Positions 3,662 through 23,300 of a stretch of DNA of 64,000 nucleotides are shown here, in pieces (within the stretch, counting starts at the first letter, position 1; each line of letters opens with the position of its first letter). Location: the NCBI GenBank assembly GCA_964477935.1, contig CAYZFX010000011.1, forward strand, positions 3,277-67,276. Direction: 5' to 3'. Origin of the DNA: an uncultured Syntrophorhabdus sp. (GTDB lineage Bacteria > Desulfobacterota > BSN033 > UBA1163). The notes beneath the pieces were generated by a model. That model saw nothing but the letters and a program-made list of their open reading frames with translations, made no database searches and was not told where the DNA came from. The translations under genes and the position numbers were made by a program.

Positions 3662-4153
3662 TTAGAGTCTCCTCCTATTCCATGTTTTTATCGTTCCGAC
3701 GAGATGTGAAATAAAATAACCCAGAAGGAGGGCACAACCGATGGCCAGGATCACCCGGAAAGGTGCCGCAGGGAGATGAAGGATGGGGGTTTTTGCCCCC
3801 CGTTTGATCATTGCATCGTAGGTATAGAGAAGCGCGCCCCATCCTAATAGGGCTACCGCCCCGATACTGATCAAAAGGGAGAGGACCGTAAAAAATGGCT
3901 GAATTCGGCCGGGCAATCGGTGGATTAATATCTCGATGATGATATGGGAGCGCTCCGCCTGGGTGTAGCTCAATGCGAAGGAGATCAAAAAGATTCCTGC
4001 CAGGCTGATGAGCTCGACGCCTCCATATAAGGGAGAACCGAAGAAGAGCCGGCCGATCACATGGACCACCGTGACGAGCATCATCGCGATGAGAGAGACG
4101 GAGGCGATGAAGAGGGGTATCTTTTTGAAGGTAAATCTGGGGGATGGTTCCAC
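3662..4153 (-). CDS. dctQ: TRAP transporter small permease
   Basis: 163 aa, four TM segments, HIIIEIL motif; lies between dctP and dctM. Confidence 0.92.
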   Translation of the reverse strand: MEPSPRFTFKKIPLFIASVSLIAMMLVTVVHVIGRLFFGSPLYGGVELISLAGIFLISFALSYTQAERSHIIIEILIHRLPGRIQPFFTVLSLLISIGAVALLGWGALLYTYDAMIKRGAKTPILHLPAAPFRVILAIGCALLLGYFISHLVGTIKTWNRRRL

Positions 4154-4184
4154 AGGTTGATCCTCGCTCGAAATCTCGATAAAA

Positions 4185-4235
4185 TCGGGTTCGCCTCGCT
4201 ATGAATTCAAATTCATCATAGTGAGACGAACCCGA
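4185..4235. terminator. Long stem-loop between dctP and dctQ (attenuator or mRNA-stabilising hairpin)
   Basis: Arms TCGGGTTCGCCTCGCTATGA (from 4185) and TCATAGTGAGACGAACCCGA (to 4235) are reverse complements with 2 mismatches; there is an inner ATGAAT-TCAA-ATTCAT stem. Confidence 0.7.
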
Positions 4236-4255
4236 CCAAGAGGAGGGGATTCGCC

Positions 4256-7056: not shown

Positions 7057-7085
7057 TATTTATATGATTTTAAAATATTTGTCAA
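7057..7085 (-). promoter_or_regulatory. Candidate sigma70 promoter of the ligase-TRAP-esterase operon, in the divergent region shared with the regulator
   Basis: Minus-strand TTGACA (7085-7080) followed by AT-rich TATAAATA. A TGGTCTA FadR-type half site lies just downstream. Confidence 0.45.
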
Positions 7086-7129
7086 TATTCCTTTGCAAAA
7101 AAATCTTTTTTGTAGTAAGATTCCCAAAA

Positions 7130-7888
7130 ATGGTTGGTAAATTTAACCCGGTTAAACAGTTTAGGGTCTCCGAGGGAGTGATTAACCAGCTAAAACACTC
7201 CATCCTCCTTGGCCATTTTAAGGCGGGCGAAAGATTGCCCTCGGAGAGGGAACTTGCCGAAGAGTTCCGGGTCAGCCGGATGGCGATCCGGGAGGCCCTG
7301 AGAGCCCTTGAGCTCTCCGGATTCATAGAGACACGGCAGGGGATCAATGGCGGGGCCTTTGTAACGGATCTCACCTTTGAACATCTGGGCAATGCCTTCC
7401 TCGATCTCTTTTTAGCTGATAAGATCTCCATCCCCGAGATGTTACAGGTCAGACTCCTCATCGAGCCAGAGGTAGCCAGGCTTGCGACCTTGAACATTAA
7501 TCCCTCCTATACCCAGAGGTTGAAAGAAGCCCTTGAGCTTGAGGAACTCCCTCCGACCTCATTGATCCACGACGTCGAGATCAAACAGAACTTCCATTTT
7601 ATTCTGGCGGAGATGGCTGGCAATCGGTTCTTTGAAGCGATTGTCCGATCACTGTTAAAGTTGACCAAAAATCTGGTATTGGGAGTGGATGTGGGCCCTC
7701 GCTTTATCCATCCGGCAGGCATGCATCGAAAGGTGGCAGAGGCTGTTCTGTCCGGCAATCCGGGGGATGCTTATGAGGCGATGAGGAGGCATACCCTTGA
7801 GTTCGGAGAGAAACTGATCGAACTGGAAAAGGCCTACCGGCAAAAGAAAGCCCTTCTCTCTTATGAAGGGATGTTCCTCGATCGATAG
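7130..7888 (+). CDS. GntR/FadR-family transcriptional regulator
   Basis: wHTH RLPSERELAEEFRVSRMAIREAL plus FCD domain (FHFILAEMAGN, HRKVAEAV). Start moved to ATG 7130 (MVGKFNPVK). Divergent from the ligase operon. Confidence 0.93.
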   Translation: MVGKFNPVKQFRVSEGVINQLKHSILLGHFKAGERLPSERELAEEFRVSRMAIREALRALELSGFIETRQGINGGAFVTDLTFEHLGNAFLDLFLADKISIPEMLQVRLLIEPEVARLATLNINPSYTQRLKEALELEELPPTSLIHDVEIKQNFHFILAEMAGNRFFEAIVRSLLKLTKNLVLGVDVGPRFIHPAGMHRKVAEAVLSGNPGDAYEAMRRHTLEFGEKLIELEKAYRQKKALLSYEGMFLDR

Positions 7889-9614: not shown

Positions 9615-10787
9615 ATGCATAGAGAAAAGAAGACCCCCTTGCGAATGCCGAAGGAATGGAACGCCATAGAGAAACGTCTCGCCAAGGCCGAAAAAGCCCT
9701 GCTCGAGAGTGAGAGGAGATTTCAGGCCCTGATGGAAAACTCTCCCATAGGGATTCTGATTGTTCAGGAGGGTCAAATCGTTTACGAAAACCCTGTGGAA
9801 AAGAAGCTTTCCGGACCTCTGGCTCAGTTCTTTAGACATGGAAAATTAGAAAACATCCATCCGGATGATTTCGAAAAAGTGGAAAGGGAATTTCGGAAAA
9901 TCATCTCTGGGGAGGTCAAATCCCTCGAAATGGACTTTAGGTTTCATCGTAAAGAGAATGATGATTCCCCTCAGAACATGGTGTGGGTCCAATGCTGGGC
10001 AAGCTTCATCGAGTATTTAGGGAAAGAGGCCTTATTGGTCAGCAAACTGGACATTACCCGGGCCAAGGAGATGGAACATCTCTTGAGGATCGAAGATAAG
10101 ATGGCCTCGCTGGGACGTGTGGCCTCAGGCATTGCCCATGAGATCCGAAGCCCGCTTTCGGGGATCAACATCTTTTTGAATAATCTGGAAAAGGTCCTCG
10201 AGGAGCCCCAGGGTCAGGAGAAGGTCAAAGAGATTATCAGACAGATCCGGTCTGCCTCAAACAAAATCGAAGCCGTGATCCGTCGGGTCATGGATTTTGC
10301 CAAGCCCACTGAACCCAGATTTGTTCTGACGAACCTCCATCAACCCATCCAGGAGGCGATCGATCTTTCTGCCGTGACCTTACGAAGGAGCGGAATCTCA
10401 TTGCATCGATCCTTTGCTAAATCGTTACCCCCTTGTCAGGCAGACCCCCATCTCATCGGACAGGTGATTTTAAATTTGATCAGTAATGCAGCGGAGGCGA
10501 TGAAAGGTATGGAAGGAGACAGACACATTGAAATTGCGACAAGGGCGCGGGATGACCGGATCATCATCGGGATTTCGGATTCGGGCCCGGGCGTCCCTTT
10601 TCATCTTCGGAAGAAGATTTTTGACCCTTTTTTCACAACGAAGAACGGGAGCACGGGGATAGGGCTCAGCATCTGTCAGCGAATCGTTACCGATCACGGA
10701 GGTGAATTGAGCGTGTTGACCAGTAGATGGGGCGGGGCGGAATTCAGGATCGAGATCCCAATTAACAGAGAGAAAAAACAGGCATGA
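9615..10787 (+). CDS. Cytoplasmic PAS-domain sensor histidine kinase
   Basis: PAS (IHPDD), H-box AHEIRSPL, N/G1/F/G2 boxes (NLISNA, DSGPG, FDPFFTTK, GTGIGL); no TM segment. Confidence 0.95.
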   Translation: MHREKKTPLRMPKEWNAIEKRLAKAEKALLESERRFQALMENSPIGILIVQEGQIVYENPVEKKLSGPLAQFFRHGKLENIHPDDFEKVEREFRKIISGEVKSLEMDFRFHRKENDDSPQNMVWVQCWASFIEYLGKEALLVSKLDITRAKEMEHLLRIEDKMASLGRVASGIAHEIRSPLSGINIFLNNLEKVLEEPQGQEKVKEIIRQIRSASNKIEAVIRRVMDFAKPTEPRFVLTNLHQPIQEAIDLSAVTLRRSGISLHRSFAKSLPPCQADPHLIGQVILNLISNAAEAMKGMEGDRHIEIATRARDDRIIIGISDSGPGVPFHLRKKIFDPFFTTKNGSTGIGLSICQRIVTDHGGELSVLTSRWGGAEFRIEIPINREKKQA

Positions 10788-12172
10788 TCACCTATTCCAT
10801 CTATGTTCTGGACGACGAAGAGACCATAAGGGAAGGGATTACCATGGCCTTGGAGAAGGAATACAGGGTGAAGACCTTCTCCACGGCCAAGGCCGCCCTT
10901 GAGGCCATTCCAAAGGATCCCCCGGACTTGATCATCCTGGATATCGGCCTTCCCGATATGAATGGCATCGAGGCTCTCCGCAAAATCAAAGCCCTTCTTC
11001 CTGAAGTTCTGATCATCGTCGTCACCGCTTATGAAGATATTGACACTGTTGTCTCTGCGATGAAGCTGGGAGCGAGCGATTATGTGGTCAAGCCGATTCA
11101 TATGGAAGGCCTGACGATCACCATTCACAACGCCATCGAGACCATTCGTCTGAGAAAAGAGGTTCAGATCCTTCAGGAGAAATATCTTAAGGAAAACCTC
11201 CCCTGTTTTATCGGTGAAAGCAATGTGATTCACGACGTGATGGAATTTGTAGGGATGGTGGCCAGGAGTCCCGATACACCGATCCTCATTCTCGGTGAGA
11301 CGGGGACGGGGAAGGAGTTGGTTGCCAGCGCCATCCACTACCACAGCCCCAATTTTATGGGGCCTTTCATCACGGTTAACTGCGCGGCCATTCCAAAGGA
11401 GCTCATAGAGAGCGAACTCTTCGGGTATGAAAGGGGGGCGTTTACAGGGGCAAGCGTATCTGGCAAAAAGGGTTTGATCGAAGAAGCAGCCAATGGGACG
11501 CTGTTTCTTGATGAGGTGGGGGATTTGAGCCTCGAATCACAGGCGAAACTCCTCCGTTTTCTCGAAGCTGGAGAATTTTATAGAGTAGGTGGGACGAAGA
11601 AAATACAGGTTCGGGTTCGGGTGATCTCCGCCACCAATAAGAATCCTGAGACCCTGATCGAGACAGGCCAGTTCAGGAAAGACCTCTACTATCGGCTGGG
11701 GGTGATCAAAATTCAGATTCCGTCGTTAAACGAGCGTCGAGAAGACATCATCCCCTTGGCCAAATTTTTCCTGGTACGATTTAATAAGAAATTTGGAAAG
11801 AAGTTTACGGGCTTCACCCCACAAGCAGAGAGGGCCTTGGTGGATTACCACTGGGTTGGGAATGTGCGGGAATTGAAAAATATGATCGAGAGGGCTGTTT
11901 TAACCAGCAAGGGTCCGGAGCTGACGAAGAAGGACCTCGGAATAGAGGAACGGAGCCTTGCCGATGTCTCAAGCCAGTTCGACCCGAAGCAGGTTATTTC
12001 TCCCCTCCCTCCGGAAGGCATTGACCTTCCTGCTCTCCTGGAATCCATAGAGAGGAGGTATATCCAGGAGGCCCTTCAAATGGCTCAAAGGAACGAAAGC
12101 AGAGCGGCAAGATTGCTCCACCTGAACCACCATACATTTCGTTATCGGAAGAGAAGATTACAGATCAAATAG
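10784..12172 (+). CDS. sigma54-dependent response regulator (NtrC family)
   Basis: Receiver domain (DDE, D, K), GETGTGKE, GAFTGA, LFLDEVG, WVGNVREL, C-terminal HTH; ATGA overlap with the kinase gene. Confidence 0.96.
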   Translation: MITYSIYVLDDEETIREGITMALEKEYRVKTFSTAKAALEAIPKDPPDLIILDIGLPDMNGIEALRKIKALLPEVLIIVVTAYEDIDTVVSAMKLGASDYVVKPIHMEGLTITIHNAIETIRLRKEVQILQEKYLKENLPCFIGESNVIHDVMEFVGMVARSPDTPILILGETGTGKELVASAIHYHSPNFMGPFITVNCAAIPKELIESELFGYERGAFTGASVSGKKGLIEEAANGTLFLDEVGDLSLESQAKLLRFLEAGEFYRVGGTKKIQVRVRVISATNKNPETLIETGQFRKDLYYRLGVIKIQIPSLNERREDIIPLAKFFLVRFNKKFGKKFTGFTPQAERALVDYHWVGNVRELKNMIERAVLTSKGPELTKKDLGIEERSLADVSSQFDPKQVISPLPPEGIDLPALLESIERRYIQEALQMAQRNESRAARLLHLNHHTFRYRKRRLQIK

Positions 12173-12269
12173 ATTCGTCCCTTCCGACGGCCACCGGTTT
12201 CCGAGGTTCTCCTCGTCCTCCATCCTTTTCTTGTCCTCCCGTTTTGGGTTTTCCCCAAACCTATCCCCT

Positions 12270-12304
12270 AATTTCTAAAGTTTGCGAAGCAAAATTTAGA
12301 AATT
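12270..12304. promoter_or_regulatory. 35-bp palindrome, candidate enhancer (UAS) of the sigma54 promoter
   Basis: AATTTCTAAAGTTTGC-GAA-GCAAAATTTAGAAATT: 16-bp arms with 1 mismatch, about 90-125 bp upstream of the -24 element. A related half site lies at about 12374-12387. Confidence 0.55.
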
Positions 12305-12394
12305 TTTCAAAATCCTTCGAATCCCAAAACCCCATATAAAAATCAAAAGAAGGTAACTTTTTGAATCCCTTCAAATTTTCTAAATTTCAACTTT

Positions 12395-12410
12395 TGGCAT
12401 CTCCTTTGAA
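12395..12410 (+). promoter_or_regulatory. sigma54 (-24/-12) promoter, variant -12
   Basis: TGGCAT-CTCCT-TTGAA: GG-N10-GA (canonical is GG-N10-GC), 55 bp before the GAF gene. Confidence 0.65.
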
Positions 12411-12464
12411 TAAAGAAGGGTTAACGGATGGGAATTTAGACAACGAAAGGAGGGGCGATCGAGG

Positions 12465-13031
12465 ATGACCGCTGAAAAACCGGGTGGGTTCAATTTTTAT
12501 GACATGGTGAAAACCACCCCTTCCTCCTTAGGGGTCCGTGAGGTTATCGGGACCTTAGTCCGCAAGGTGAATCAGTTGATGAATGGGAAGGGATGTTCCC
12601 TCCATCTATTCGATCCCGAACGGAAGAGATGGGAATTGGTGGCTTCCCATGGATTAGGCGGTGATGATTTTGGAAAAGACCCTGTAGAGGCCGATCAGAG
12701 GATCGTAGAGACCTTGGTAGGGAACACGGTATGGGTCTCGGAGGCCACAAAATTTCCAGGCGTTCAATACGAAAAGGAGGCTGTGGGAGAAGGGAGATAT
12801 GGCGTCCTATCGGTTCCCCTTTCTGTTGAGGGACAGGTGGTGGGTATGCTGCGCCTCTATACCCCTGAGCCTCGAACTTTTTTGAAGGGAGAGATCGATT
12901 TTGCCGAGGCAATGGCTGAGATGGGAGCGAACATCCTCGAAAATATTAGAAGGTACGAAAGCCTTCGGAGAGATTATGAGTATGTGGTGAATGACATCTT
13001 CACCTTCTATGGATTCCGGCGGGGCATTTAG
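12465..13031 (+). CDS. Stand-alone GAF domain protein
   Basis: KGCSLHL, ASHGL, LSVPLSVEGQVVGMLRLY...F...EIDF GAF pattern; SD AAAGGAGG. Confidence 0.88.
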   Translation: MTAEKPGGFNFYDMVKTTPSSLGVREVIGTLVRKVNQLMNGKGCSLHLFDPERKRWELVASHGLGGDDFGKDPVEADQRIVETLVGNTVWVSEATKFPGVQYEKEAVGEGRYGVLSVPLSVEGQVVGMLRLYTPEPRTFLKGEIDFAEAMAEMGANILENIRRYESLRRDYEYVVNDIFTFYGFRRGI

Positions 13032-13049
13032 GTTGACCCGCAGCATTCA

Positions 13050-13670
13050 ATGGATCTAAAAAACGGGGAAGAGGAAGAGAGGGTGATTTCTACGAAGAGC
13101 CTATCGGTTGAGGTAAGATTCCACGGCAGGGGCGGACAGGGGGTAGTTACTGCCGCAAAACTTCTTGCCGAGGCCGCCATGAAAGAAGGAAAGTATTTTC
13201 AGGCCCTGCCGGATTATGGAGGGGAGAGGATGGGGGCCCCTGTCCGGGCCTATACCCGGATTAGCTCAACCCCGATCACCCTCCATTGTCAGGTCACCGA
13301 GCCAGAGATTGTGGTGGTCATCGACCCGACTCTGATCGAATTTATTGATGTGACAGAGGGCCTCCATCCGGAAGAGGGGATCCTCGTCGTCAATGCCCCT
13401 CTTTCTCCGGATGAGATTCGAAAGAAGACTTCTTTTAAGAAGGGAAAGGTGGCTACGGTAAACGCCACCCATATCGCTCTCCAATATCTGGGGAGAAATA
13501 TTCCGAATACCCCCATGTTGGGAGCCTTGGTCAAAGCGACCCCCATCGTTCGGGAGAAGACTCTTATCGATACGATCCAATATAAGTTGGAAGCCACGAT
13601 GTCCTCGAAGGTGGCAGAGGCGAATCGGGAGGCCTTCGAACGGGCCTTTCATGAGTGCCAGATAGGGTGA
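13050..13670 (+). CDS. porC: 2-oxoacid:ferredoxin oxidoreductase gamma subunit
   Basis: EVRFHGRGGQG, ERMGAPV and PNTPMLGA motifs. Confidence 0.93.
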   Translation: MDLKNGEEEERVISTKSLSVEVRFHGRGGQGVVTAAKLLAEAAMKEGKYFQALPDYGGERMGAPVRAYTRISSTPITLHCQVTEPEIVVVIDPTLIEFIDVTEGLHPEEGILVVNAPLSPDEIRKKTSFKKGKVATVNATHIALQYLGRNIPNTPMLGALVKATPIVREKTLIDTIQYKLEATMSSKVAEANREAFERAFHECQIG

Positions 13671-13684
13671 TCAAAGGAGGAACC

Positions 13685-13987
13685 ATGTCCCAACCGCTCA
13701 AGGGTTGGAGAGAGTTGCCCATGAGGGGCTTGATCGTCGAGCCCGGCAATTCCGTTGATTACGAGACAGGGAGCTGGAGGGCCCTTCGGCCTATCATCGG
13801 TTTAGAAAAATGCTCCCATTGTATGTTATGTTGGCTCTTTTGCCCGGATGCGAGCATCCGGGTAGAAAACTCCAAAGTGGTAGGCATAGACCTGAAGTAT
13901 TGTAAAGGGTGCGGCATCTGTCGGGAGGTATGTCGTCGCCAGGCGATCACAATGGTTGAAGAGACGAAGGGAAAGGAGGAGGTATAG
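13685..13987 (+). CDS. porD: 2-oxoacid:ferredoxin oxidoreductase delta subunit (2x[4Fe-4S])
   Basis: TGSWR..RP, CSHCMLCWLFCP and CKGCGICREVC motifs. Start set at ATG 13685 after AAGGAGG. Confidence 0.92.
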   Translation: MSQPLKGWRELPMRGLIVEPGNSVDYETGSWRALRPIIGLEKCSHCMLCWLFCPDASIRVENSKVVGIDLKYCKGCGICREVCRRQAITMVEETKGKEEV

Positions 13988-15187
13988 ATGGATCTCCTTC
14001 CGGTCAAAGGTAAACTCATGGCTCTTGAGGGGGATAATGCGATCGCTGAGGCCATGCGCCAGATCAATCCGGATGTGGTTGCCGCTTATCCCATCACCCC
14101 TCAAACCGAAATCGTCATGACCTTTAGCGAATTCGTCAGTCAGGGTTTGGTCGATACAGAACTTATTCCTGTTGAGAGCGAACATGCGGCCTTGAGCGCC
14201 TGTATCGGAGCCGCTCTGGCCGGGGCACGGACACAGACGGCGACCTGCGGTCCAGGATTGGCTCTGTTGTGGGAGATGCTCTGGGTCGCCTCGGGATGGC
14301 GTCTGCCCATTGTGATGCATATCACCAATCGGGCGTTTAACACTCCTTTAAACATCCTTTGCAGTCACGACGATTCCATGGGTTCCCGGGATGCCTGCTG
14401 GATTCAGCTCTACGCAGAAACCCAACAAGAGGCCTACGACAATGTGCTCCAGGCCGTTAGAATCGCCGAGCATCCCGAAGTTCTTCTGCCGGTGATGTGT
14501 TGTCTGGACGGGTTTGTCCTCAGCCATACCCTTGCGCCTGTTGAGGTTCTGCCCGATGAGATGGTGAAGAAATGGGTTGGCGAGTATTCGCCACGCTATT
14601 CCGTTCTGGATGTGGATCATCCGGTCACCTATGGGGCCGCTGATTTTACCGATTACTATTTTGAGCATAAGCGTCCCCAGTGGGAGGCAATGGCAAAGGC
14701 ATCGGGCGTTATTATGGAAATCGGCGAAGAATATGGCAAACTCACGGGCCGTCCATACCGTTCCATCGATACCTACCGACTGGAGGATGCGGAGGTGGCG
14801 ATCGTCATCTTGGGGGCAACAGCCGGCGCCGTCCGGGTGGCCGTCGACCGACTCCGGGCGAAAGGGATCAGGGCAGGAATGCTCAGGATTCGCTGCTTTC
14901 GCCCATTTCCAGCCGAGGCGGTGGCCGAAGCCCTCCAGGGCCTAAAGGCGGTCGCGGTACTGGAGCGAACCGGATTTTTTGGTGCCCAGGGAAACCCGGT
15001 CTTCACCGAAGTGGCAACGGCCCTATATCTCAAAGGGATCCGGATCCCACTGACCAATTACATTTTTGGCCTCGGGGGGAGGGATACGGTTCCCGAACAA
15101 ATCTGCACCGTCTATGAGGATCTGATCGACATGGCCCGGTCAGGCAAGACCGAGCCCGTCTTCCGTTATCTTGGGTTGAGAGAATGA
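13988..15187 (+). CDS. porA: 2-oxoacid:ferredoxin oxidoreductase alpha subunit
   Basis: YPITPQT, ESEHAA, NRA, DGFVLSH and GLGGRD motifs. Confidence 0.94.
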   Translation: MDLLPVKGKLMALEGDNAIAEAMRQINPDVVAAYPITPQTEIVMTFSEFVSQGLVDTELIPVESEHAALSACIGAALAGARTQTATCGPGLALLWEMLWVASGWRLPIVMHITNRAFNTPLNILCSHDDSMGSRDACWIQLYAETQQEAYDNVLQAVRIAEHPEVLLPVMCCLDGFVLSHTLAPVEVLPDEMVKKWVGEYSPRYSVLDVDHPVTYGAADFTDYYFEHKRPQWEAMAKASGVIMEIGEEYGKLTGRPYRSIDTYRLEDAEVAIVILGATAGAVRVAVDRLRAKGIRAGMLRIRCFRPFPAEAVAEALQGLKAVAVLERTGFFGAQGNPVFTEVATALYLKGIRIPLTNYIFGLGGRDTVPEQICTVYEDLIDMARSGKTEPVFRYLGLRE

Positions 15188-15203
15188 GAGAGGAAGGGGA
15201 ACC

Positions 15204-16274
15204 ATGGCTATCGAGGCAAAGGCAACCAAAATAAAGCTCAGAGAACTCTGTCATCAGGAAGAAAGATTGGCCCCCGGCCATCGAATGTGCTCTGGCTGCG
15301 CCGAAGCGGTCATCGTCCGTCAGGTCTTGCATGCGATCAACGATCCCGTGGTCGTGGCGACGCCGACCGGTTGTCTCGAAATCACCACGGGAATCTTTCC
15401 CTACACGGCCTGGCGAGTCCCCTGGATCCACAGCGCTTTTGAAAATGCCGCTTCGATCATCTCCGGTGTCGAAGCCGCCTATCGTTCTTTAAGGAGACGG
15501 GGCAAGATCGGTGACAGGACAATCAAATTTGTGGTCTTTGCCGGCGATGGCGCCACGTATGATATCGGATTCCAATGGTTGAGCGGCGCCCTGGAAAGGG
15601 GCCATCAATTTCTATATGTCTATATGAACACAGGAACCCAACGGAGCGGCGCCACCCCTAAAGGGGCCTGGAGCACAACCACTCCCGTGGGTAAGGCCGT
15701 CGCCGGGAAGTTGCAACACCGGAAGGATATGACCGCGATTGTTGCCGCTCATAATATTTCCTTTGTGGCTCAAGCCGCACCCCACGCCTGGCAAGACTTC
15801 ATGACGAAGGTGAAAAAGGCCATCTCCTCGGAAGGCCCTTCCTTCATTAATGTCATCAGCCCATGCCCCCGCGGCTGGCGCTATGATCCAAAGGACCTCA
15901 CCCTCCTGTCAAAGCTTGCCGTAGAAACCTGTGTCTGGCCCCTTTATGAAGTCGACCATGGGTCTTGGAAATTAAATTATAAACCGAAGGTAAAAAAACC
16001 GATCACGGAATGGTTCGCCGCTCAGGGAAGGTTCGCCCATTTGCTCTTGCCGGAATATAAGGAGCTGTCTGAGATGCTCCAACACCAGGTGGATCTGGAA
16101 TGGTCCAGGTTGGAGCTACGGTGTCGAGAAAGTTCCATCTCTCTCCCTCACCTCCAGATTCCATCTTCCACTGCTCTCGCCCAGAGGGCAAGTTTTAAGC
16201 CTCTCCCTGACTCCAGGGAAGATCTCGAGGAGAGAGAAGGGGTCCTTCCCTCCGGTATGGGCCTCCAAGGATGA
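15204..16274 (+). CDS. porB: 2-oxoacid:ferredoxin oxidoreductase beta subunit, possibly defective (TPP-motif deletion and C-terminal read-through)
   Basis: CSGC, TGC, GDG and SPCPRGW are present, but the sequence reads FLYV|YMNTG where the family has (C/M)YDNEAYMNTG. About 45 extra low-complexity residues follow ...RLELRC. Confidence 0.9.
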   Translation: MAIEAKATKIKLRELCHQEERLAPGHRMCSGCAEAVIVRQVLHAINDPVVVATPTGCLEITTGIFPYTAWRVPWIHSAFENAASIISGVEAAYRSLRRRGKIGDRTIKFVVFAGDGATYDIGFQWLSGALERGHQFLYVYMNTGTQRSGATPKGAWSTTTPVGKAVAGKLQHRKDMTAIVAAHNISFVAQAAPHAWQDFMTKVKKAISSEGPSFINVISPCPRGWRYDPKDLTLLSKLAVETCVWPLYEVDHGSWKLNYKPKVKKPITEWFAAQGRFAHLLLPEYKELSEMLQHQVDLEWSRLELRCRESSISLPHLQIPSSTALAQRASFKPLPDSREDLEEREGVLPSGMGLQG

Positions 16275-16706
16275 TCACCGAGGGTTCCCCTTTTTCAATT
16301 CGTCCCAGGGATAGTCGATCAGCTCGAGGAGCACCCCGTTCACCGTTTTAGGATGGATGAAGGCATATTTGCAGTCCCGGAAGGTTCTTGTTCCGCCGAC
16401 GAAATGGTAACCCTTGGCCTTCAGGTCCTCGATGGCCTTTTCCGTATTGTCGACATTGAGGCTGAGCACCATCATCCCTTCGCCCTTCTTTTCGATATAC
16501 TTCGCCACTTCCCCATCCGGTGTGGTCGATTCCATCAGTTCAAATCCTACCTCGCCCACCCAGTAGCGGGCCACCCGGATCTTCTCCGTCTCATCGACAT
16601 AGGAGTCATCCGGAGCGGACTTCCCGAGGATGGGCTCCCAGATCTTTCGGGCTGCCTCGAGGTCCCTGACGGCAATACAGATATGGTCGATCTTATTGAC
16701 TTTCAT
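16275..16706 (-). CDS. VOC (glyoxalase/methylmalonyl-CoA epimerase-like) protein
   Basis: IDHICIAV, ELME, GEG, FIHPK..NGVLLELI. Start set at ATG 16706. Confidence 0.88.
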   Translation of the reverse strand: MKVNKIDHICIAVRDLEAARKIWEPILGKSAPDDSYVDETEKIRVARYWVGEVGFELMESTTPDGEVAKYIEKKGEGMMVLSLNVDNTEKAIEDLKAKGYHFVGGTRTFRDCKYAFIHPKTVNGVLLELIDYPWDELKKGNPR

Positions 16707-16763
16707 GGAGGGTCTCATCCTTTCGTCTCGAAGATTTGATCCCCTTGGACCTTTCCTCTTTCA

Positions 16764-18026
16764 TCAAAAGCTGACTTTATATTTTCGGCTCAGATGGGCG
16801 AGCGATTCATCGATCGCATCGGCCACAAAGTCGAGATCCTGATCGGTGTGGCGATAGCAGATATACCCGTGATGATGGGGGGCAAAGAAGATGCCCCGCC
16901 GGATGAGCTGGGTGTAGATCTCCTCCCGCCTTGCCCGGTGGGTCTCCGCCTTGTCCCGCTTGAAGGTGATGAAGAACATCGGCGCGACCCCGCTCAATTC
17001 GGCCCCGACCTCGTACTTGTCGACAATAGCCTGTAATTTTTTCAGAAACCGCCCACCTCGCTCCCAGATCTGGGCGAGGACATTGTCCCGTTCGAGGATT
17101 TCGATCGTCTTGAGGGCGGCGATGAAGCCATCGCTGTTGGGAAAGAAGGTGGAGGAGATAAAGAGTTTCTGGGCTGCTGCCATCATCACCTCCGCCTTTC
17201 CGGTGACGACACTGATCGCATAGCCGTTGGCCATCCCTTTTCCGAGGACAGCCAGATCCGGGGTCACCCCATAGAGTTGCTGAGCCCCTCCGAGACGAAG
17301 CCTGAAACCCGTCCGGATCTCGTCGAAGATGAGGACCGCCCCATACTTCGTGGCCAGCGCCCTCACCCCTTCGAGGAAGCCGGGCTTCGGCTCCTCCATC
17401 TTCTGGTGGAGGGGATGGCCGAAGGGAGTCAGGATGATGGCCGCGGTCTGGTCACCGTGCTCTCTCATCAGGTCTTCGAGCTGATCGAGATCGTTATATC
17501 GGAACTCAAAGACGTCCTCATAAAACTTCGGAGGGATGCCGCCCTTCATTTCCACGCACCAGTCGTGCCACCCATGATAACCGCAGCGCATCACCTTGAT
17601 CCGATTGGTGTGGGCCCGGGCGATGCGGATGCTGGCAGTGGTGGCATCGGAGCCGGTCTTTAAAAAGATGGACATCTCGGAGCAGGGGACGATCTCGCTC
17701 AATTTCTTCGCAAGCTCGTTCTGATACGGCTGGGTGAGGGTAAAACAGAAGCCCTTCTCCCGGATCTGCCGGATGACCGCCTCGTCCACCTCTTCCTCGC
17801 GATAGCCCAGAATGATCGGTCCGTAACCGCAGAGGAAATCAATGTACTCGTTCCCGTCCACATCGATCAGACGACACCCCTTGCCGTACTCGAGGAAGAT
17901 GGGATATTCGCCTTCGATGAAGTCGCTCGGTTTCCGGGCTCCGAGGACACCGCCAGGGACGAATTTTTTGGCTTCCTCAAAGAGTTCCAGGCTTCGACGG
18001 ATATTCAACTTTTCAGCGGATTTCAT
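16764..18026 (-). CDS. Class III PLP aminotransferase (GSA-aminomutase-like fold, not HemL)
   Basis: DVDGNEYID, KTGSDAT, YHGW, FDEIRTGFR and PLP lysine in LGKGMANG. Start set at ATG 18026 after AAGGAG. Confidence 0.92.
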   Translation of the reverse strand: MKSAEKLNIRRSLELFEEAKKFVPGGVLGARKPSDFIEGEYPIFLEYGKGCRLIDVDGNEYIDFLCGYGPIILGYREEEVDEAVIRQIREKGFCFTLTQPYQNELAKKLSEIVPCSEMSIFLKTGSDATTASIRIARAHTNRIKVMRCGYHGWHDWCVEMKGGIPPKFYEDVFEFRYNDLDQLEDLMREHGDQTAAIILTPFGHPLHQKMEEPKPGFLEGVRALATKYGAVLIFDEIRTGFRLRLGGAQQLYGVTPDLAVLGKGMANGYAISVVTGKAEVMMAAAQKLFISSTFFPNSDGFIAALKTIEILERDNVLAQIWERGGRFLKKLQAIVDKYEVGAELSGVAPMFFITFKRDKAETHRARREEIYTQLIRRGIFFAPHHHGYICYRHTDQDLDFVADAIDESLAHLSRKYKVSF

Positions 18027-18074
18027 AAGGGATCTCCTTGGCATGGATGGCCTTTTTAAGGCCACCTACGCTCT

Positions 18075-19217
18075 CTAAAGGGAGAGGATCGAATGAACCT
18101 TTTCTGTCTGATGGATTTTGGCACCCCTCTGGATCAAGGCCCTAAGAAATTTTTTCGGATCGATGCAACCTTCTGGAGCGACCACTCCTTTGACCGTGAC
18201 ATCCCCAGCGTTCATCATCAGGGCTGCGATTGAGGCGGGAAGTCCTGTCCCCGGAGCCATCCTCCCGGCGATATCGGCGGTGAAGGTCACCTCTTTCCCT
18301 TCTCTCTCTCCCTTGACGATCACCTTCAGGCCCGAGGATTGAGGGCCCCGATCTCGATTGTTGGGGATGGAGTTCCAGAGCTGTAGGGTGAGATCGTAGG
18401 GAGCTACCTTCACCCCTTTGACCTCGATGGGCTCCTTGCTCAGAAAGCCGGTATCCCTCTGCTCCTTGATGAGCTCATCGACCCATGCCGGGATCAGGGC
18501 ACCCTTGATCACCACGTTCTTTACTCCTTTGATGTAACGGGGGATGGTCAGGGGTTGGGGATGGCCGACGTAGCGAACCTTGCAGACGCCGAGGGGGTCG
18601 AGGAACTCGGCCATCTCCTCTCCCGTACCTCCTTCTACATAGACCAGCCTGCCGTCCAGATACTGGGGAATCCTCCCGAGGGTCATGTGGAGGCTGTGAT
18701 CCCAGGCCGCGCCCGAGAGCTCGGCGATGCTCACGACCCAGAAGAGGGCAATGTCATCCACACGGTCGAGCTGATCGGCGAAATATTTAACGATGACGTT
18801 GTTTGTTCCCGGGTCGGAGCCCATCCCCGTAAGGACGGTGATCCCGGCGGCCCGGGCCGCCTGATCGATTTCGGAAGAGAAGAGGATTTCGGTCGCCTCG
18901 TAGTCATCGCAGATATCGATGTAGTTGACCCTCGCCTCCACAGCCGCACGAGCCACGGCGACCGCCGTCTTATAGAAAGGGCCTGCGCAGTTGATGACCA
19001 CATCGACCCCTTGGATGGCCTCGACCATGCCCTGAGGGTCATTCACATCGAGCCTTTTGAGCTCGACCTTCTCACTGGACCGGAGCTTCTCTTGGACCCG
19101 GGCAGGGTCGACATTGATGTCCCCTAAGATCACCTTCTTCAACCGATCCTGCTTGATGAGGTCCCGGGCGACTCCCTGACCCATTCCGCCCGTTCCTCCG
19201 ACGATCAATGCCTGCAT
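18075..19217 (-). CDS. Saccharopine dehydrogenase-family NAD(P)-dependent oxidoreductase (lysine 6-dehydrogenase/CANSDH-like fold)
   Basis: GGTGGMG Rossmann motif, VINCAGPF, YIDICDD, GMGSDPG and HPQPLTIP. Confidence 0.9.
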   Translation of the reverse strand: MQALIVGGTGGMGQGVARDLIKQDRLKKVILGDINVDPARVQEKLRSSEKVELKRLDVNDPQGMVEAIQGVDVVINCAGPFYKTAVAVARAAVEARVNYIDICDDYEATEILFSSEIDQAARAAGITVLTGMGSDPGTNNVIVKYFADQLDRVDDIALFWVVSIAELSGAAWDHSLHMTLGRIPQYLDGRLVYVEGGTGEEMAEFLDPLGVCKVRYVGHPQPLTIPRYIKGVKNVVIKGALIPAWVDELIKEQRDTGFLSKEPIEVKGVKVAPYDLTLQLWNSIPNNRDRGPQSSGLKVIVKGEREGKEVTFTADIAGRMAPGTGLPASIAALMMNAGDVTVKGVVAPEGCIDPKKFLRALIQRGAKIHQTEKVHSILSL

Positions 19218-19265: not shown

Positions 19266-21554
19266 TCATTTGGTTCCATTCCCCTTCTTTTTCTCTTCGA
19301 TGGCTTTCAGAATCTTATCCGGCGTGATGGGAAACTCATGGAAGAAATAACCGACTGCATTCGAGATGGCCCCGCAGTATGCCTGAGCCGCGCTCATCGC
19401 CACGGACATCCCTGCCTCTTTGGCGCCGTAAGGCCCGTTGGGATCGATCGTCTCGACGATGATATCATTGATCTTCGGCATATCGATGGCGAGGGGGACC
19501 AGATAGCCGAGCTGGGTTGGGTTCAAGACCCTTCCTTCATGCCACTGGAGGAATTCCGTAAGCATTCCGCCCTGTCCTCCCATAGCCACCCCGCCTTCGA
19601 ACTGCCCCTCGATGACCTTCGGATTGAGGGCGTAGCCGACATCCTGGGAGGCGGTCACCTCCAGGACCTCCACCTGGCCCGTTTCGGGATCGACCTTGAC
19701 CTCGCAGATAACCGTGCCGAAGGAGAAGGTCTCCGAAAGCTGACCATAAGGGTTCTTGACCCACTCCCGCTTCCAATCCACTTTGGGCCAGTAAGAACCG
19801 GATCCGCTGATCGACTCATTCCGAGAGAGGGCCATCCGCACCGCCTTGTCAATACTGATTGACTGGTCAGGATTTTTGGTGACGAAGATCTTCCGGTTTC
19901 TTACGCTCAGTTCCTCCTCGGAGACGCCGAGCTCTTCGGCGACGATCCTGTAGAGTTTCTTCTTCACGTCCAGAGCGGCGAGGCGAACGGCATTTCCTCC
20001 GATGAACGTCTCGCACATTGAATAGGATCCCGGGTCGCTCGGGGTAACCTCTGTATCGGCGTTGATGAGCTGGATGTCATCCGGCGTAAGGCCCAGTTCT
20101 TCGGCCACGATCTGAACCACCATATGATCATTGCCCTGGCCGTTGTCCACGATTCCGGTGATCACGGTGGCCCCGCCGTCCTCGTTCAGTTTGATGAAGG
20201 CTTGGGAGCCTCCCCGGATGCCCATGGGAAAACCGGTCTGGACAGAGTTACACCCGATGCCGATGCCATGGTAAGGGGGTAATTTCCCGAACTTCTCGGA
20301 CCAACGGGCCTTCTCTGCCGAACGGAGGATCGTTTCCGTAAGACCACAGCTGGCTACATAGGAGCGGGTCGGCGTCATGTCCCCGGTCTGCCGGGCATTC
20401 CTCAGACGCATGGTCACGGGATCGATGCCCAGTTCTTCGCCGAGCCTATCGAGCTGGAGATCGACCCCGCAGGCGAAGGCCCTTCCATGGGTTCGGAACA
20501 TTCCTCGGATCGGTTTATTCGTGAGCACCCGGTAGCCATTGTAGCGGACGTTCTCCATACGGTAGGCCTGCTCCATGCAGAGAAAGGGGACCGACGTCGC
20601 GATGGGTCCGGTTGAACTGTAAGCCCCACCGTCCATGTAGCAGGTGATGTCCCGGGCGATCACTCTCCCTTCCCGGTCCACACCGGTCTTGATCCGGGTG
20701 ATCATCGAGTGGGCCTGTCGCGTGCAGACCGTATTCTCCTCGCGTGTATAGACAATCTTGACAGGTCTCTGGGATTTCTTCGCCAGCAAGGCGCAGATCA
20801 CGTCGGCGGGAGAGATTTCGGAGCGGCCTCCAAAGGCCCCTCCGATCGTAATCTTGCGGACCCTCACCTTATTGAGAGGCATTTTGAGGACGTTGGAAAG
20901 GGGTTTGGCCTTCAGATGGGGTCCTGCATTGGGCATCCAGATCTCGAGGTTTCCCGCATGGTCGAACTGGGCCACGACCGCATAGGGTTCTCCCTGGAAA
21001 TAGGAGTCCTCAGGGGCCGTGAAGGTATCCTCTCGGACAAGATAGGAGCTGGCAAAGCCTTTTTCGACATCGCCCACATTGATGTGGACGTGAATGTTGA
21101 TGTTGTTGGGGTAGATCTCGTGGAGCTGGGGCGCACCGGGCGCAAGGGCCTCCTCGATCGTGAAGACTGCGGGGAGCACCTCGTAGGTGACCTCGATGAG
21201 CGAGAGCGCCTCGAGGGCCGTATCTTCATCGATGGCCGCTACCGCAGCCACCTCTTCACCGACATAGCGGACCTTATCCGTCGGAAGGAACTGTTGATCC
21301 TGTGTATATTTAAACACCCCCCACTTCTCTCCGGTCGTGTCCTTGGCGGTGACGACCGCTTTGACCCCGGGGAGCTTTTCTGCCCTCGAGGTGTCGATCG
21401 ATATGATCCGTGCATGGGCGTGGGGGGACCTCAGGATCTTTCCCACCAGCATCCTCGGAAGGGAGAGGTCGGCCGTAAAGCGGGCCTCCCCTGTCGCCTT
21501 CGAGATGGTATCGATCCGCTTCATATCCTTGCCGATGTAAGAAAATTTTTCCAT
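19266..21554 (-). CDS. Xanthine-oxidase-family molybdopterin-binding subunit, HcrA-like, with a non-canonical active site
   Basis: ILRSPHAHARI, DKVRY.G..VAAVAA, GGAFGGRSE, DNGQG, ALNP..IEGQ and DPNGPYGAKE. Start set at ATG 21554 after GGAGG. Confidence 0.93.
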   Translation of the reverse strand: MEKFSYIGKDMKRIDTISKATGEARFTADLSLPRMLVGKILRSPHAHARIISIDTSRAEKLPGVKAVVTAKDTTGEKWGVFKYTQDQQFLPTDKVRYVGEEVAAVAAIDEDTALEALSLIEVTYEVLPAVFTIEEALAPGAPQLHEIYPNNINIHVHINVGDVEKGFASSYLVREDTFTAPEDSYFQGEPYAVVAQFDHAGNLEIWMPNAGPHLKAKPLSNVLKMPLNKVRVRKITIGGAFGGRSEISPADVICALLAKKSQRPVKIVYTREENTVCTRQAHSMITRIKTGVDREGRVIARDITCYMDGGAYSSTGPIATSVPFLCMEQAYRMENVRYNGYRVLTNKPIRGMFRTHGRAFACGVDLQLDRLGEELGIDPVTMRLRNARQTGDMTPTRSYVASCGLTETILRSAEKARWSEKFGKLPPYHGIGIGCNSVQTGFPMGIRGGSQAFIKLNEDGGATVITGIVDNGQGNDHMVVQIVAEELGLTPDDIQLINADTEVTPSDPGSYSMCETFIGGNAVRLAALDVKKKLYRIVAEELGVSEEELSVRNRKIFVTKNPDQSISIDKAVRMALSRNESISGSGSYWPKVDWKREWVKNPYGQLSETFSFGTVICEVKVDPETGQVEVLEVTASQDVGYALNPKVIEGQFEGGVAMGGQGGMLTEFLQWHEGRVLNPTQLGYLVPLAIDMPKINDIIVETIDPNGPYGAKEAGMSVAMSAAQAYCGAISNAVGYFFHEFPITPDKILKAIEEKKKGNGTK

Positions 21555-21652
21555 AACCTGCCTCCCCATGCCGAGCGGTTTCAGCCTACCCGATGGGCAC
21601 TAAACTTTTTCTCCCGTCCGCCTCTCTCTCCCTACACCTTTCGTGATGGATC

Positions 21653-22135
21653 TTACGAGACCGTCTCTCCGGCGAGAGACCGGATGGCCTCTACAATTTT
21701 GGCATAGCCGGTACATCGGCAGATGTTTCCGGAGATGGCCTGTCGGATCTCACGTTCGGTCGGGTTTGGGTTCTCTCTCAGAAGGGCGTAGGCGGTGAGG
21801 ATCATGCCGGGACTGCAAAAGCCGCACTGGATGGCATGGTGTTGGATGAAAGCCTCCTGAACAGGGTGGAGGCGATCTCCTTTCCTGAGCCCTTCGATCG
21901 TCGTAATCTCCATTTCCTGGACCGTGGCCGCGAGGGTGAGGCAGGACCTCACGGGGATTCCGTCAATGAGGACGGTACAGGACCCGCAGACTCCTTCCCC
22001 GCAACCCTCCTTCGTCCCTGTGAGATGGAGATCGTTTCGAAGGACGTCGAGGAGCGTCCGGTTGGGAGAGACGAGGAGGTCAAAGACTTCTCGATTGACC
22101 TTCAGGCGAATGGCTCTCTTCTTCATCTCCACCAT
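21653..22135 (-). CDS. 2x[2Fe-2S] subunit of the XO-family molybdoenzyme (HcrC/CoxS-like)
   Basis: GTKEGCGEGVCGSC, QCGFCSPG and NICRCTGY motifs. Confidence 0.96.
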   Translation of the reverse strand: MVEMKKRAIRLKVNREVFDLLVSPNRTLLDVLRNDLHLTGTKEGCGEGVCGSCTVLIDGIPVRSCLTLAATVQEMEITTIEGLRKGDRLHPVQEAFIQHHAIQCGFCSPGMILTAYALLRENPNPTEREIRQAISGNICRCTGYAKIVEAIRSLAGETVS

Positions 22136-22136: not shown

Positions 22137-23111
22137 TCACGGTCTCCCTTCCATCCTTTCCATGGCCGCTTTCACGGCCCGTTTGGCCAGCACCCCTGCC
22201 ATCTTTCTCCTGTAGGGGCCCGGCATCTGGAGATTATCGATCGCTTCCGCGAGTTCGGAGGCCTTCTGGCCCAGGCTCTCCAGATCGATCTCTCCGGAGA
22301 GGTCATCGATGGGTCTTGGCCCCGCTCCAAAGGCCCCGAGGACGACCCGGCATCGTTCGATCCCTTCCTCCTCCAGGGTTGACACAAAGGCCGCTGCTGA
22401 GGCGATGGGGTAGTCGATGCTTCCCCGAAGGCGGAGTTTCTGGTAGGACGAACCGGACCTGCCTTCTGGATGGGGGAGGATGATCTTCGTGAGCAATTCA
22501 TCAGGTTCGAGGTTGAATGGGGTGATGCCATTGCCAGTAAAAAGGTCCTGCACGGGAATCGTTCGGTTCGAATCCTTCTTTTCGAGAAGACATCGGGCCT
22601 TGAAGGCGAAGAGGACGGGGGCCAAATCGCCCTGATAGACACTGAAACAACGTCTGCTTCCTTTGACTGCGAGGCAGGCATCTCCACCTCTTTTGTGGCA
22701 CCGTTCGAGCCCATCGAGAACCAATCGGGATTGGTTGTAATAGAGGCATCGGGTATTCTGGAGCAGGTTCCCGCCTATGGTCGCCATGTTGAGGATTGTG
22801 GGAGAAGCCACCTGATGGGCCGCTTCGGTGAGGGCTTGAAATTTCCGGGCGAGGAGAGGCGATCGGGCGATCGCTCTCAATCTGGTGTTGGCCCCGATGA
22901 TCGTCTCGCGCTCCCTCACTTCAATGCCTTCCAGCTCCTTAATCTTTCCAAGGCAGACCACGACTTCAGGCTCCATGAGCCCCAACCTCATCCGGTTCAA
23001 AAGGTCTGTTCCCCCTGCCATCACCTTGGCGGTCTCTTTCCGAGCGTGGAGAAGGGCGAGGATCTCTTCGAGGGTCTTGGGCTCAAGGAGTTGAAACGGT
23101 GGAAGTCTCAT
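22137..23111 (-). CDS. FAD-binding subunit with HcrB-type [4Fe-4S] insertion
   Basis: AGGTDL, ATIGGNL, and the RCLYYNQS...CHKRGGDAC...RC..YQGDLAP four-Cys insert. Start set at ATG 23111 (SD AGGAG) because a promoter overlaps the upstream ATG. Confidence 0.93.
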   Translation of the reverse strand: MRLPPFQLLEPKTLEEILALLHARKETAKVMAGGTDLLNRMRLGLMEPEVVVCLGKIKELEGIEVRERETIIGANTRLRAIARSPLLARKFQALTEAAHQVASPTILNMATIGGNLLQNTRCLYYNQSRLVLDGLERCHKRGGDACLAVKGSRRCFSVYQGDLAPVLFAFKARCLLEKKDSNRTIPVQDLFTGNGITPFNLEPDELLTKIILPHPEGRSGSSYQKLRLRGSIDYPIASAAAFVSTLEEEGIERCRVVLGAFGAGPRPIDDLSGEIDLESLGQKASELAEAIDNLQMPGPYRRKMAGVLAKRAVKAAMERMEGRP

Positions 23112-23144
23112 CGGTGTCTCCTGGGCGTGGGGCGGTTTCCTCAT

Positions 23145-23265: not shown

Positions 23266-23300
23266 TGTATACTGTATACAAAATAACCCCTCTTTGTCAA
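23266..23300 (-). promoter_or_regulatory. Upstream promoter P2 overlapped by the perfect palindromic operator TGTATAC-T-GTATACA
   Basis: TTGACA at 23300-23295; the palindrome at 23266-23280 covers the -10 region (TACAGT at N18). Confidence 0.65.

Follow-up and report, generated by a model that had tools for sequence, protein, structure and literature searches.

Xanthine oxidase (XO) family enzymes depend on two residues at the molybdenum site, a Glu that activates or protonates the Mo-bound oxygen and a Gln that holds the apical oxo group (PMC10420851). Across the family the Glu is held to be essential, whether an enzyme works oxidatively or reductively. In the three-subunit 4-hydroxybenzoyl-CoA reductase (4-HBCR) HcrABC of Thauera aromatica (1RM6/1SB3), the Mo subunit HcrA carries both residues, and in the urolithin C dehydroxylase UcdCFO of Enterocloster, which removes a hydroxyl group, UcdO keeps the Glu as Glu741 (PMC11760930). 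Hcr-like proteins of Desulfatiglans anilini (H567DRAFT_03875/76 and 03202/03) were abundant only on aniline or 4-aminobenzoate and have been proposed to act as a 4-aminobenzoyl-CoA reductase (PMC7500099). Here we analyse a gene for an HcrA-like Mo subunit in which both residues are replaced. It lies in a 64,000-nucleotide stretch from an uncultured Syntrophorhabdus sp. (assembly GCA_964477935.1, contig CAYZFX010000011.1, positions 3,277 to 67,276 of the forward strand), hereafter the window, whose numbering is used throughout. A large clade under constraint shares the replacement of Glu and Gln by apolar residues while keeping the scaffold and the low-potential electron-transfer chain of 4-HBCR, which would represent a distinct catalytic solution within a well-studied family. 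From its genomic context, we tentatively propose that the enzyme reduces an amino-substituted aryl-CoA.

Molybdenum subunit and its active site

The gene and the four altered segments of its product are as follows.

19266..21554, minus strand: HcrA-like Mo-binding (alpha) subunit without the catalytic Glu and the oxo-binding Gln; 762 amino acids, starting MEKFSY
19407..19409, minus strand: Met716 (ATG) at the catalytic-Glu position (HcrA Glu726); GAKEASEG in HcrA, GAKEAGMS here
20925..20927, minus strand: Ala210 (GCA) at the position of the Gln bonding the apical Mo=O (HcrA Gln214); TTQVP in HcrA, NAGPH here
20013..20018, minus strand: Met513-Cys514 in the GSYSMC loop, where the family consensus is Ser-Arg; GSYSSR in HcrA
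20490..20492, minus strand: Thr355 in FRTHG, where the family consensus has Gly after Arg; MRGHG in HcrA

The predicted product is a full-length Mo subunit of the XO family whose closest solved relative is HcrA. Its Ald_Xan_dh_C (PF01315), MoCoBD_1 (PF02738) and MoCoBD_2 (PF20256) domains all score far above the Pfam gathering cut-offs, so that the a/b-hammerhead and the two molybdopterin-binding domains of the XO/aldehyde oxidase family are present. HcrA (1rm6_A) was the best sequence match in the PDB (HMMER, E = 3e-138), with residues 12-761 aligning to 11-766 of HcrA in a single colinear stretch, as expected from an earlier note on this DNA, which had described the protein outside the altered motifs as intact and colinear with HcrA. 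An upstream ATG at 21569 gives a longer intact open reading frame of 767 amino acids (19266..21569, minus strand); the 762-residue length, starting at 21554, is the commonest among homologues, and we number residues accordingly (Met716 is Met721 in the longer frame).

Superposition of a structure model on 4-HBCR had been proposed as a check, and an AlphaFold2 (AF2) model built from a 133-sequence alignment (predicted local distance difference test score, pLDDT, 84.7; predicted template modelling score, pTM, 0.86) matched 1rm6_A best, with a template modelling (TM) score of 0.92, a root-mean-square deviation of 2.8 A and 36% identity (Foldseek). Across all XO-family structures the TM scores were 0.79-0.92. 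A model from only 26 sequences was unusable (pLDDT 49.7), and the 133-sequence alignment was used instead. The only low-confidence stretches were residues 443-446, 508-514 and 683-690, of which 508-514 is the cofactor-contacting GSYSMC loop; its low confidence may simply reflect modelling without the cofactor.

Alignment to HcrA (HMMER) confirmed each of the substitutions read by eye in the earlier note: Met for the catalytic Glu at 19409-19407, Ala for Gln at 20927-20925, GSYSMC for GSYSSR and RTHG for RGHG. The two catalytic columns we take to be those of Glu1261 (HcrA Glu726) and Gln767 (HcrA Gln214) of bovine xanthine dehydrogenase, and by motif alignment Thr355 is at the predicted equivalent of Cys388 of CO dehydrogenase. 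Both Gln and Glu occupy these columns in 6-hydroxypseudooxynicotine dehydrogenase (7dqx) and in CoxL (8uem). We also considered the Glu of the GAKE motif as a clade-specific stand-in for the catalytic residue. It aligns with HcrA Glu723 rather than Glu726, HcrA has both, and the pattern GAKE..EG is frequent among canonical relatives in a set of 150 family representatives. Given that canonical Hcr-type sequences thus carry both Glu residues, we rejected a relocation of the catalytic Glu to this position.

The altered segments stand out against a largely preserved background. Of 152 columns conserved at 80% or more among 105 canonical representatives (those with both Gln and Glu), 135 are identical in the window protein, including the Gly-rich cofactor motifs GGAFGG, GxxGQG and GPYGAK. 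The 17 deviating columns take in all four known Mo-lining segments (Q210A, G355T, S513M/R514C and E716M), in agreement with the suggestion that the Mo site has been remodelled: Glu and Gln, together with the RG and SSR loops, are its second-sphere positions. At about nine other positions invariant in the family the replacement is likewise non-conservative, in general to a smaller or less polar residue (among them F275T, R281A, Y344L, T477H, N728G and R737F), and the remaining deviations are conservative.

Conservation and extent of the clade

All 120 nearest homologues (76-100% identity) have Met at the Glu column, and at the Gln column 118 have Ala and two have Gly; the same residues recur in more than 200 independent assemblies. 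Pairwise comparison of the window gene with eleven orthologues gave gene-wide ratios of nonsynonymous to synonymous substitution (dN/dS) of 0.03-0.05, and the Ala210 codon varies synonymously between genomes (GCA, GCC, GCT, GCG). Scanning one genome per GTDB species recovered 80 loci, all from metagenome-assembled genomes (MAGs). Most belong to Syntrophales, Syntrophorhabdales, Desulfarculaceae, Desulfobacteraceae and Desulfatiglandales and a few to Chloroflexota; the clade is so far known only from uncultured anaerobes, chiefly Desulfobacterota.

The clade alignment, of 86 locus-derived sequences, falls into two sub-clades. Sub-clade A is 64-96% identical to the window protein, has the gene order FAD-FeS-Mo (FAD, flavin adenine dinucleotide; FeS, iron-sulfur) and carries Met at the Glu column (68/68), with Ala (66/70) or Gly (4/70) at the Gln column. 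Sub-clade B is 52-60% identical, mostly has the order Mo-FAD-FeS, and carries Leu at the Glu column and Ala at the Gln column (16/16 each). When the sub-clades were placed with about 140 family representatives in a neighbour-joining tree, both of them and P0121 formed a single clade with P0122, which also has the Ala/Met pair, as its sister; a further sister representative, P0123, has Ser and Ile at the two columns, a FAD subunit of normal length and a short, uninformative context. This topology is consistent with the loss of Glu and Gln tracing to one ancestral change. Some clade members (P0471, P0475, P0481 and P0505; 875-938 amino acids) are fusions of a [2Fe-2S] subunit with the Mo subunit and are 70-71% identical to L052, a clade member from Desulfatiglandales.

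Whether the E-to-M and Q-to-A pair marks a conserved clade or is private to this genome can therefore be answered in favour of a clade under purifying selection, with Leu in place of Met in sub-clade B. We see practically no chance that a pseudogene, a sequencing or assembly error or a change in one genome explains the substitutions: the intact reading frame, the same residues in more than 200 assemblies, the synonymous variation of the Ala codon and the low dN/dS refute it. Because the clade is monophyletic and conserved (Met in 120/120 neighbours), under strong purifying selection (dN/dS 0.03-0.05) and accompanied by complete partner subunits, the substitutions are neither decay nor error, and the earlier argument against simple decay holds.

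Within the 150 family representatives (at most 54% identity), Glu was present in 129 and both Gln and Glu in 105, and the combination of Ala with a hydrophobic residue was restricted to the nearest relatives of the window protein; a count over the alignment of 151 sequences, the window protein included, gave Glu in 130. The earlier description of the catalytic Glu as near-invariant thus stands for characterised enzymes; across sequence space the figure is only about 86%. Unrelated representatives without the Glu include P0143, P0214, P0162, P0198, P0123, P0153, P0140 and P0142, one such motif being GAKELGMG with the Gln kept. The catalytic Glu has apparently been lost several times among uncharacterised XO-family members.

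The other altered positions are less uniform. The departure from Ser-Arg at 513-514 is clade-wide while the actual residues vary: column 513 is M or Q, and at column 514 much of the clade has Val, Ala or Ile instead of Cys. Column 355 holds T, V, M, I, C or A, and Arg354 of RTHG is Gly in sub-clade B. The earlier note had raised participation of Cys or Met as Mo ligands. Since Cys514 is Val, Ala or Ile elsewhere and Met716 is Leu in sub-clade B, an essential clade-wide thioether or thiolate ligand is unlikely, and we rejected both residues as candidates. The feature conserved across the clade is the direction of change, which argues for a loss of polar or charged, oxygen-handling side chains from the pocket, with retention of the scaffold that binds the cofactor and of the entire chain for electron transfer.

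The same data bear on the idea that the Mo site is silent, the complex being a ferredoxin/FAD/FeS electron-transfer module or a scaffold, or binding no Mo at all. Two residues held essential for catalysis in the family are absent, and the model is least confident in the cofactor-contacting loop 508-514, as such a reading would allow. Against it, the Gly-rich cofactor motifs are among the 135 of 152 retained columns, the clade shows little or no variation at the replaced positions, pointing to selection on the site rather than relaxation, and dN/dS is 0.03-0.05 over the whole 762-residue subunit. We regard a silent site as very unlikely.

Partner subunits and genomic context

The Mo subunit is encoded in an apparent operon in which the three subunit genes are followed by genes for a saccharopine-dehydrogenase (SDH)-like protein, an aminotransferase and an epimerase-like protein, all on the minus strand (23144 down to 16275), with an oxidoreductase block converging on it.

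22137..23144, minus strand: FAD subunit with an HcrB-type four-Cys [4Fe-4S] insert; best PDB match 1rm6_B, the four Cys aligned
21653..22135, minus strand: small subunit, HcrC-like, for two [2Fe-2S] clusters; Pfam Fer2 and Fer2_2, eight Cys in the sequence
18075..19217, minus strand: SDH-like NAD(P) oxidoreductase, 380 amino acids; Pfam Sacchrp_dh_NADP and Sacchrp_dh_C, PDB relatives weak
16764..18065, minus strand: class-III aminotransferase resembling glutamate-1-semialdehyde (GSA) aminomutase; Pfam Aminotran_3, below curated cut-offs
16275..16718, minus strand: methylmalonyl-CoA-epimerase-like protein of glyoxalase fold, last gene of the operon; Pfam Glyoxalase_4, TIGR03081 86.8 against 114.95
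13050-16274, plus strand: Por-type 2-oxoacid:ferredoxin oxidoreductase, four subunits
23267..23279, no strand: perfect palindrome GTATAC-T-GTATAC, upstream of the FAD gene

The partner subunits are complete, as had been stated earlier, with eight Cys in the FeS subunit, whose PDB matches are FeS subunits of the XO family, and the four-Cys insert in the FAD subunit. This HcrB-type insert, an additional [4Fe-4S] site of about 40 residues, is present in 68 of 78 FAD subunits adjoining clade members and in none of 14 FAD subunits of a canonical paralogue described below. As the FAD subunit keeps the insert, electrons should flow towards Mo. Its start is probably the ATG at 23111, which has AGGAG seven bases upstream and yields the orthologue length of 324 amino acids; the ATG at 23144 abuts a promoter-like TTGACA-17-TATAAA site, with TATAAA in the -10-like position.

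HcrABC and the window enzyme are alike in having three subunits with a colinear alpha subunit, two [2Fe-2S] clusters, the four-Cys [4Fe-4S] insert, the GAKE motif typical of Hcr-type enzymes and, by analogy, an implied inverted, ferredoxin-driven electron flow. They differ in that HcrA keeps Glu726, Gln214, SSR and RG where the window protein has Met, Ala, SMC and RT together with further changes at invariant positions, and in context, which here comprises an aminotransferase, an SDH-like gene and, in related loci, genes of indoleacetate degradation. All three subunits fall far below the NCBIfam equivalog cut-offs for 4-HBCR (TIGR03194, Mo subunit, 642.6 bits against 994.55; TIGR03193, small subunit, 175.5 against 257.8; TIGR03195, FAD subunit, 217.5 against 404.55). 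Since neither the curated cut-offs nor the catalytic Glu and Gln support membership, the 4-HBCR annotation should not be applied to clade members, though many database entries carry it, including the 4-HBCR alpha label that the Joint Genome Institute (JGI) gives to many of them. These routine labels of '4-hydroxybenzoyl-CoA reductase alpha' would thereby be corrected.

The enzyme could still be a reductive dehydroxylase for another hydroxy-aryl-CoA, with water or another residue delivering protons. HcrA is the closest relative in both sequence and structure, the [4Fe-4S] insert is kept, the JGI labels point the same way, and phenolic acids could be indicated by three things that the window encodes: a TRAP transporter, a CoA ligase and a member of the tannase/feruloyl-esterase family. 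The scores well under the three 4-HBCR cut-offs speak against it, as does the retention of Glu in characterised members that remove oxygen, namely HcrA and UcdO (PMC11760930). In addition, both oxygen-handling residues are gone together with about nine other invariant residues, and the genes in context are of the indoleacetate and aminotransferase type rather than for phenol or 4-hydroxybenzoate. We judge a dehydroxylase improbable. UcdCFO shares with the window enzyme the XO family, dependence on molybdopterin cytosine dinucleotide, three subunits and a reductive direction on an aromatic substituent, and differs in its kept E741, the hydroxyl removed, its other substrate class and the lack of a CoA ester.

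Clustering all open reading frames of 86 loci identified the genes that recur around clade members; context was counted in 41 non-redundant loci with at least 6 kb of flank on both sides (well-flanked loci). Recurrent neighbours encode a family-III CoA-transferase, one or two acyl-CoA dehydrogenases, the electron-transferring flavoprotein (ETF) EtfAB and a GntR/FCD regulator; a split B12-dependent acyl-CoA mutase, a PaaK-type CoA ligase, hydantoinase/caprolactamase-like HyuAB and a TRAP transporter DctPQM; and a second XO-family trimer. We take these to be the genes by which Aromatoleum/Azoarcus degrade indoleacetate anaerobically (the iaa pathway), in which IaaL is a phenylsuccinyl-CoA transferase, IaaF a decarboxylating dehydrogenase and 2-aminobenzoyl-CoA the end product. 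The described steps comprise a CoA ligase, a Mo hydroxylase, hydantoinase-like ring opening, the IaaL transferase, the IaaGH mutase and the IaaF dehydrogenase (PMC8360864). Iaa operons of strict anaerobes have a dedicated ETF, as do the related loci here, and GGG in place of YEG is diagnostic of the benzylmalonyl-CoA dehydrogenase IaaF (PMC8360864). GGG replaces YEG in 20 of 23 acyl-CoA dehydrogenases of the family that recurs in clade loci. No Iaa-specific models were found in NCBIfam, which leaves the GGG motif and the gene content as the basis of the assignment. Clusters of the Syntrophorhabdales type (L001 4760-7079, L031 4672-6991, L037 and L039) have two tandem acyl-CoA dehydrogenase paralogues, both with GGG. 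At least two iaa-type genes were found in 22/41 well-flanked loci, the SDH-aminotransferase pair in 25/41 and one or the other in 36/41.

In many loci the second trimer is encoded immediately upstream of its Glu-less counterpart (L019 6031-8382, L044 6084-8432, L065, L050, L057 and others), preceded by HyuAB and a PaaK-type ligase. Its Mo subunit is canonical (TQ, RGYGN, ASR and GAKGIGEPG) and 35-38% identical to the window protein, its FAD subunit has no [4Fe-4S] insert, and it is probably the indoleacetate or indoleacetyl-CoA hydroxylase of the iaa pathway. As this paralogue in the same family and the same clusters keeps Gln and Glu, the loss is specific to the Glu-less enzyme and not a property of the organisms. 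An XO-family clade defined by the loss of both residues, or its link to iaa clusters, was not found described in the searchable literature.

The SDH-like and aminotransferase genes occur in related loci across orders with 70-89% identity to those of the window, and at least 80% among the 120 nearest homologues. The pair follows both sub-clades despite their differing gene order, the aminotransferase is always paired with the SDH-like gene, and the epimerase-like gene is present in 23/41 well-flanked loci. All three proteins score below every curated equivalog cut-off. The best NCBIfam and PDB matches of the aminotransferase are GSA aminomutases, and the homologues retrieved with the SDH-like protein as query were all orthologues of at least 80% identity with generic names, giving no functional clue.

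The palindrome at 23267-23279 overlaps the -10 element of a promoter-like TTGACA-16-TATACA site and is the only GTATAC-N-GTATAC site in the window at up to one mismatch (0.01 expected). In 1.43 Mb of related loci we found 49 such sites, almost all intergenic, where about three or fewer would be expected by chance. Upstream of the orthologous FAD gene there are 28 of these, including 18 in the divergent CoA-transferase/FAD intergenic region; others lie beside the mutase operon (n = 8), before dctQ (n = 6) and before a sub-clade B Mo gene (n = 1), with further sites before the SDH-aminotransferase pair in two loci lacking the Mo trimer (L089 and L090). The form of the palindrome fits GntR/FadR-type operators, GntR/FCD regulator genes sit in the iaa-type clusters, and it is probably the operator of that regulator. 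The shared palindrome ties the stand-alone operon of the window to the iaa-type clusters, so that the Glu-less trimer, the SDH-aminotransferase pair, the iaa genes and the transporter appear to belong to one type of regulon.

Candidate chemistry and remaining genes of the window

The altered pocket would imply new chemistry at the Mo site, as the earlier note had supposed, and the genomic context (iaa cluster, shared operator and aminotransferase pair) suggests of what kind. The explanation we prefer, with rather less than even confidence, is that the enzyme uses ferredoxin to reduce an amino-substituted aryl-CoA, 2-aminobenzoyl-CoA for example. Electrons would pass from reduced ferredoxin, which the adjoining 2-oxoacid:ferredoxin oxidoreductase may supply, through the [4Fe-4S] cluster, FAD and the two [2Fe-2S] clusters to Mo, as in 4-HBCR. 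The best candidate substrate would be 2-aminobenzoyl-CoA as the end product of the iaa pathway, or else the CoA ester of an imported aminobenzoate, and its substituent would be conjugated with the thioester as in 4-HBCR chemistry. A ring nitrogen substituent would be removed, or readied for removal, in place of a hydroxyl. There would then be no Mo-OH or Mo=O oxygen to deprotonate, transfer or protonate off, so that the acid-base Glu and the oxo-anchoring Gln would become dispensable, and the apolar side chains would reshape the pocket. IaaF offers a conceptual parallel, in which a catalytic Glu (YEG) gives way to the small, apolar GGG in a reaction that needs no proton abstraction (PMC8360864); its acyl-CoA dehydrogenase fold and chemistry are unrelated to the enzyme discussed here, and its orthologues sit beside clade members. 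A bolder version, which we consider possible and somewhat doubtful, is that this is the first XO-family enzyme for C-N rather than C-O chemistry, a ferredoxin-driven Mo aryl-amine reductase that strips off or mobilises the amino group of 2-aminobenzoyl-CoA, possibly through a Mo-N intermediate.

Denitrifiers dispose of 2-aminobenzoyl-CoA by an ATP-dependent benzoyl-CoA reductase. To our knowledge, strict anaerobes do not have this enzyme, and an activity that deaminates aminobenzoyl-CoA reductively, described in the early 1990s, is not known to have been assigned to any protein or sequence-defined family. The clade is a candidate for the enzyme by which obligate anaerobes without the ATP-dependent reductase take off the amino group. 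If true, this would close the anaerobic auxin and anthranilate pathway in strict anaerobes, give the early-1990s activity its enzyme, and bear on what becomes of auxin, anthranilate and aromatic amines in the anoxic settings where such MAGs are common (sediments, digesters and groundwater).

The nearest functional precedent is the putative 4-aminobenzoyl-CoA reductase of D. anilini, likewise an Hcr-type XO enzyme of a strictly anaerobic member of the Desulfobacterota, with a proteomic link to aromatic amines; the reductive deamination of aminobenzoyl-CoA proposed there is the function we favour for the clade. Its context differs, consisting of genes for aniline carboxylation (para-amino) rather than iaa genes (ortho-amino).

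Several observations weigh against an aminoaryl-CoA reductase. The 240 nearest homologues and the 80 GTDB loci contained no D. anilini protein, a search for the D. anilini Hcr-like proteins starting from the Desulfatiglandales clade member L052 returned MAG sequences only, and the precedent may concern a different Hcr-like lineage. Neither the nearest homologues nor the GTDB loci of the clade come from a cultured organism, and its members are known from MAG-derived sequence alone. Fewer than two iaa-type markers were found near the Mo trimer in 19/41 well-flanked loci, and the window itself holds no homologue of the CoA-transferase, acyl-CoA dehydrogenase, mutase, PaaK or Hyu proteins in its 64 kb (tblastn), its iaa-like items being limited to a GntR/FCD regulator, a CoA ligase and a TRAP transporter. 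The SDH-aminotransferase pair also occurs without the Mo trimer, under the same operator (L089 10001-12434; L090 10001-12410). About 13% of the 150 representatives, in unrelated lineages, have no acidic residue at the catalytic-Glu column, and the fit between the loss of Glu and Gln and a nitrogen leaving group is a matter of chemical reasoning. The main weakness is that plain deamination to benzoyl-CoA would leave the aminotransferase and the SDH-like enzyme with no obvious substrate. As to the two loci without the trimer, one has the pair beside a MeaB-acyl-CoA dehydrogenase-mutase set, the other near a glycyl-radical enzyme and a tannase-family gene.

That weakness gives weight to the chief rival, a dearomatising or partial reduction in which the Mo enzyme would reduce the aminoaryl-CoA ring while the nitrogen stays on, to leave later by transamination and not as ammonia. 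The SDH-like enzyme would reduce an enamine or imine, the epimerase-like protein would fix the configuration at the alpha carbon of the thioester, and a beta-amino group would be turned into a beta-keto group by the class-III aminotransferase ahead of hydrolytic ring opening. Such a route would give every conserved operon gene a role. Enzymes of the saccharopine dehydrogenase family reduce C=N bonds, and class-III aminotransferases acting on beta-aminoacyl-CoA are known. The pair is adjacent in 25/41 well-flanked loci and with both sub-clades, one operator is common to all these genes, and the neighbouring 2-oxoacid:ferredoxin oxidoreductase would suit a 2-oxoacid amino acceptor. The route is, however, energetically harder, as reduction of the benzoyl-CoA ring demands a far lower potential than ferredoxin alone gives, as is established for benzoyl-CoA reductases, and 4-HBCR does not dearomatise. 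Moreover, the pair is not nearby in 16/41 well-flanked loci and exists without the Mo trimer. We consider ring reduction unlikely, and retain the reductase for amino-substituted aryl-CoA as our working explanation.

Other features of the window are as follows.

9615-16274, plus strand: sensor kinase, sigma-54 response regulator, GAF protein and the Por block
7064-7888: GntR/FCD regulator
5418-6959: CoA ligase
2353-5260: TRAP transporter
503-2206, minus strand: tannase/feruloyl-esterase-family esterase

The block of Por, sensor kinase, sigma-54 regulator and GAF genes is not at the matching place in L005, a relative with 96% identity. Because a sigma-54 response regulator is encoded nearby, we searched for a sigma-54 promoter upstream of the operon and found none, matches in the window occurring at chance level. 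A weak -24/-12-like site, TGGCAT-N5-TTTGA, precedes the GAF gene at 12395-12410, and sites of this quality are as frequent in the window as expected by chance. A tannase-family gene is also present near the SDH-aminotransferase pair in L089 (3657-5357), and tannase-family genes near the TRAP transporter and ligase may point to an imported acid that is released from an ester. Finally, rsmG (gidB), parA and parB lie together at 59501-61832 on the plus strand, a grouping that suggests that the window is near the chromosomal origin region.

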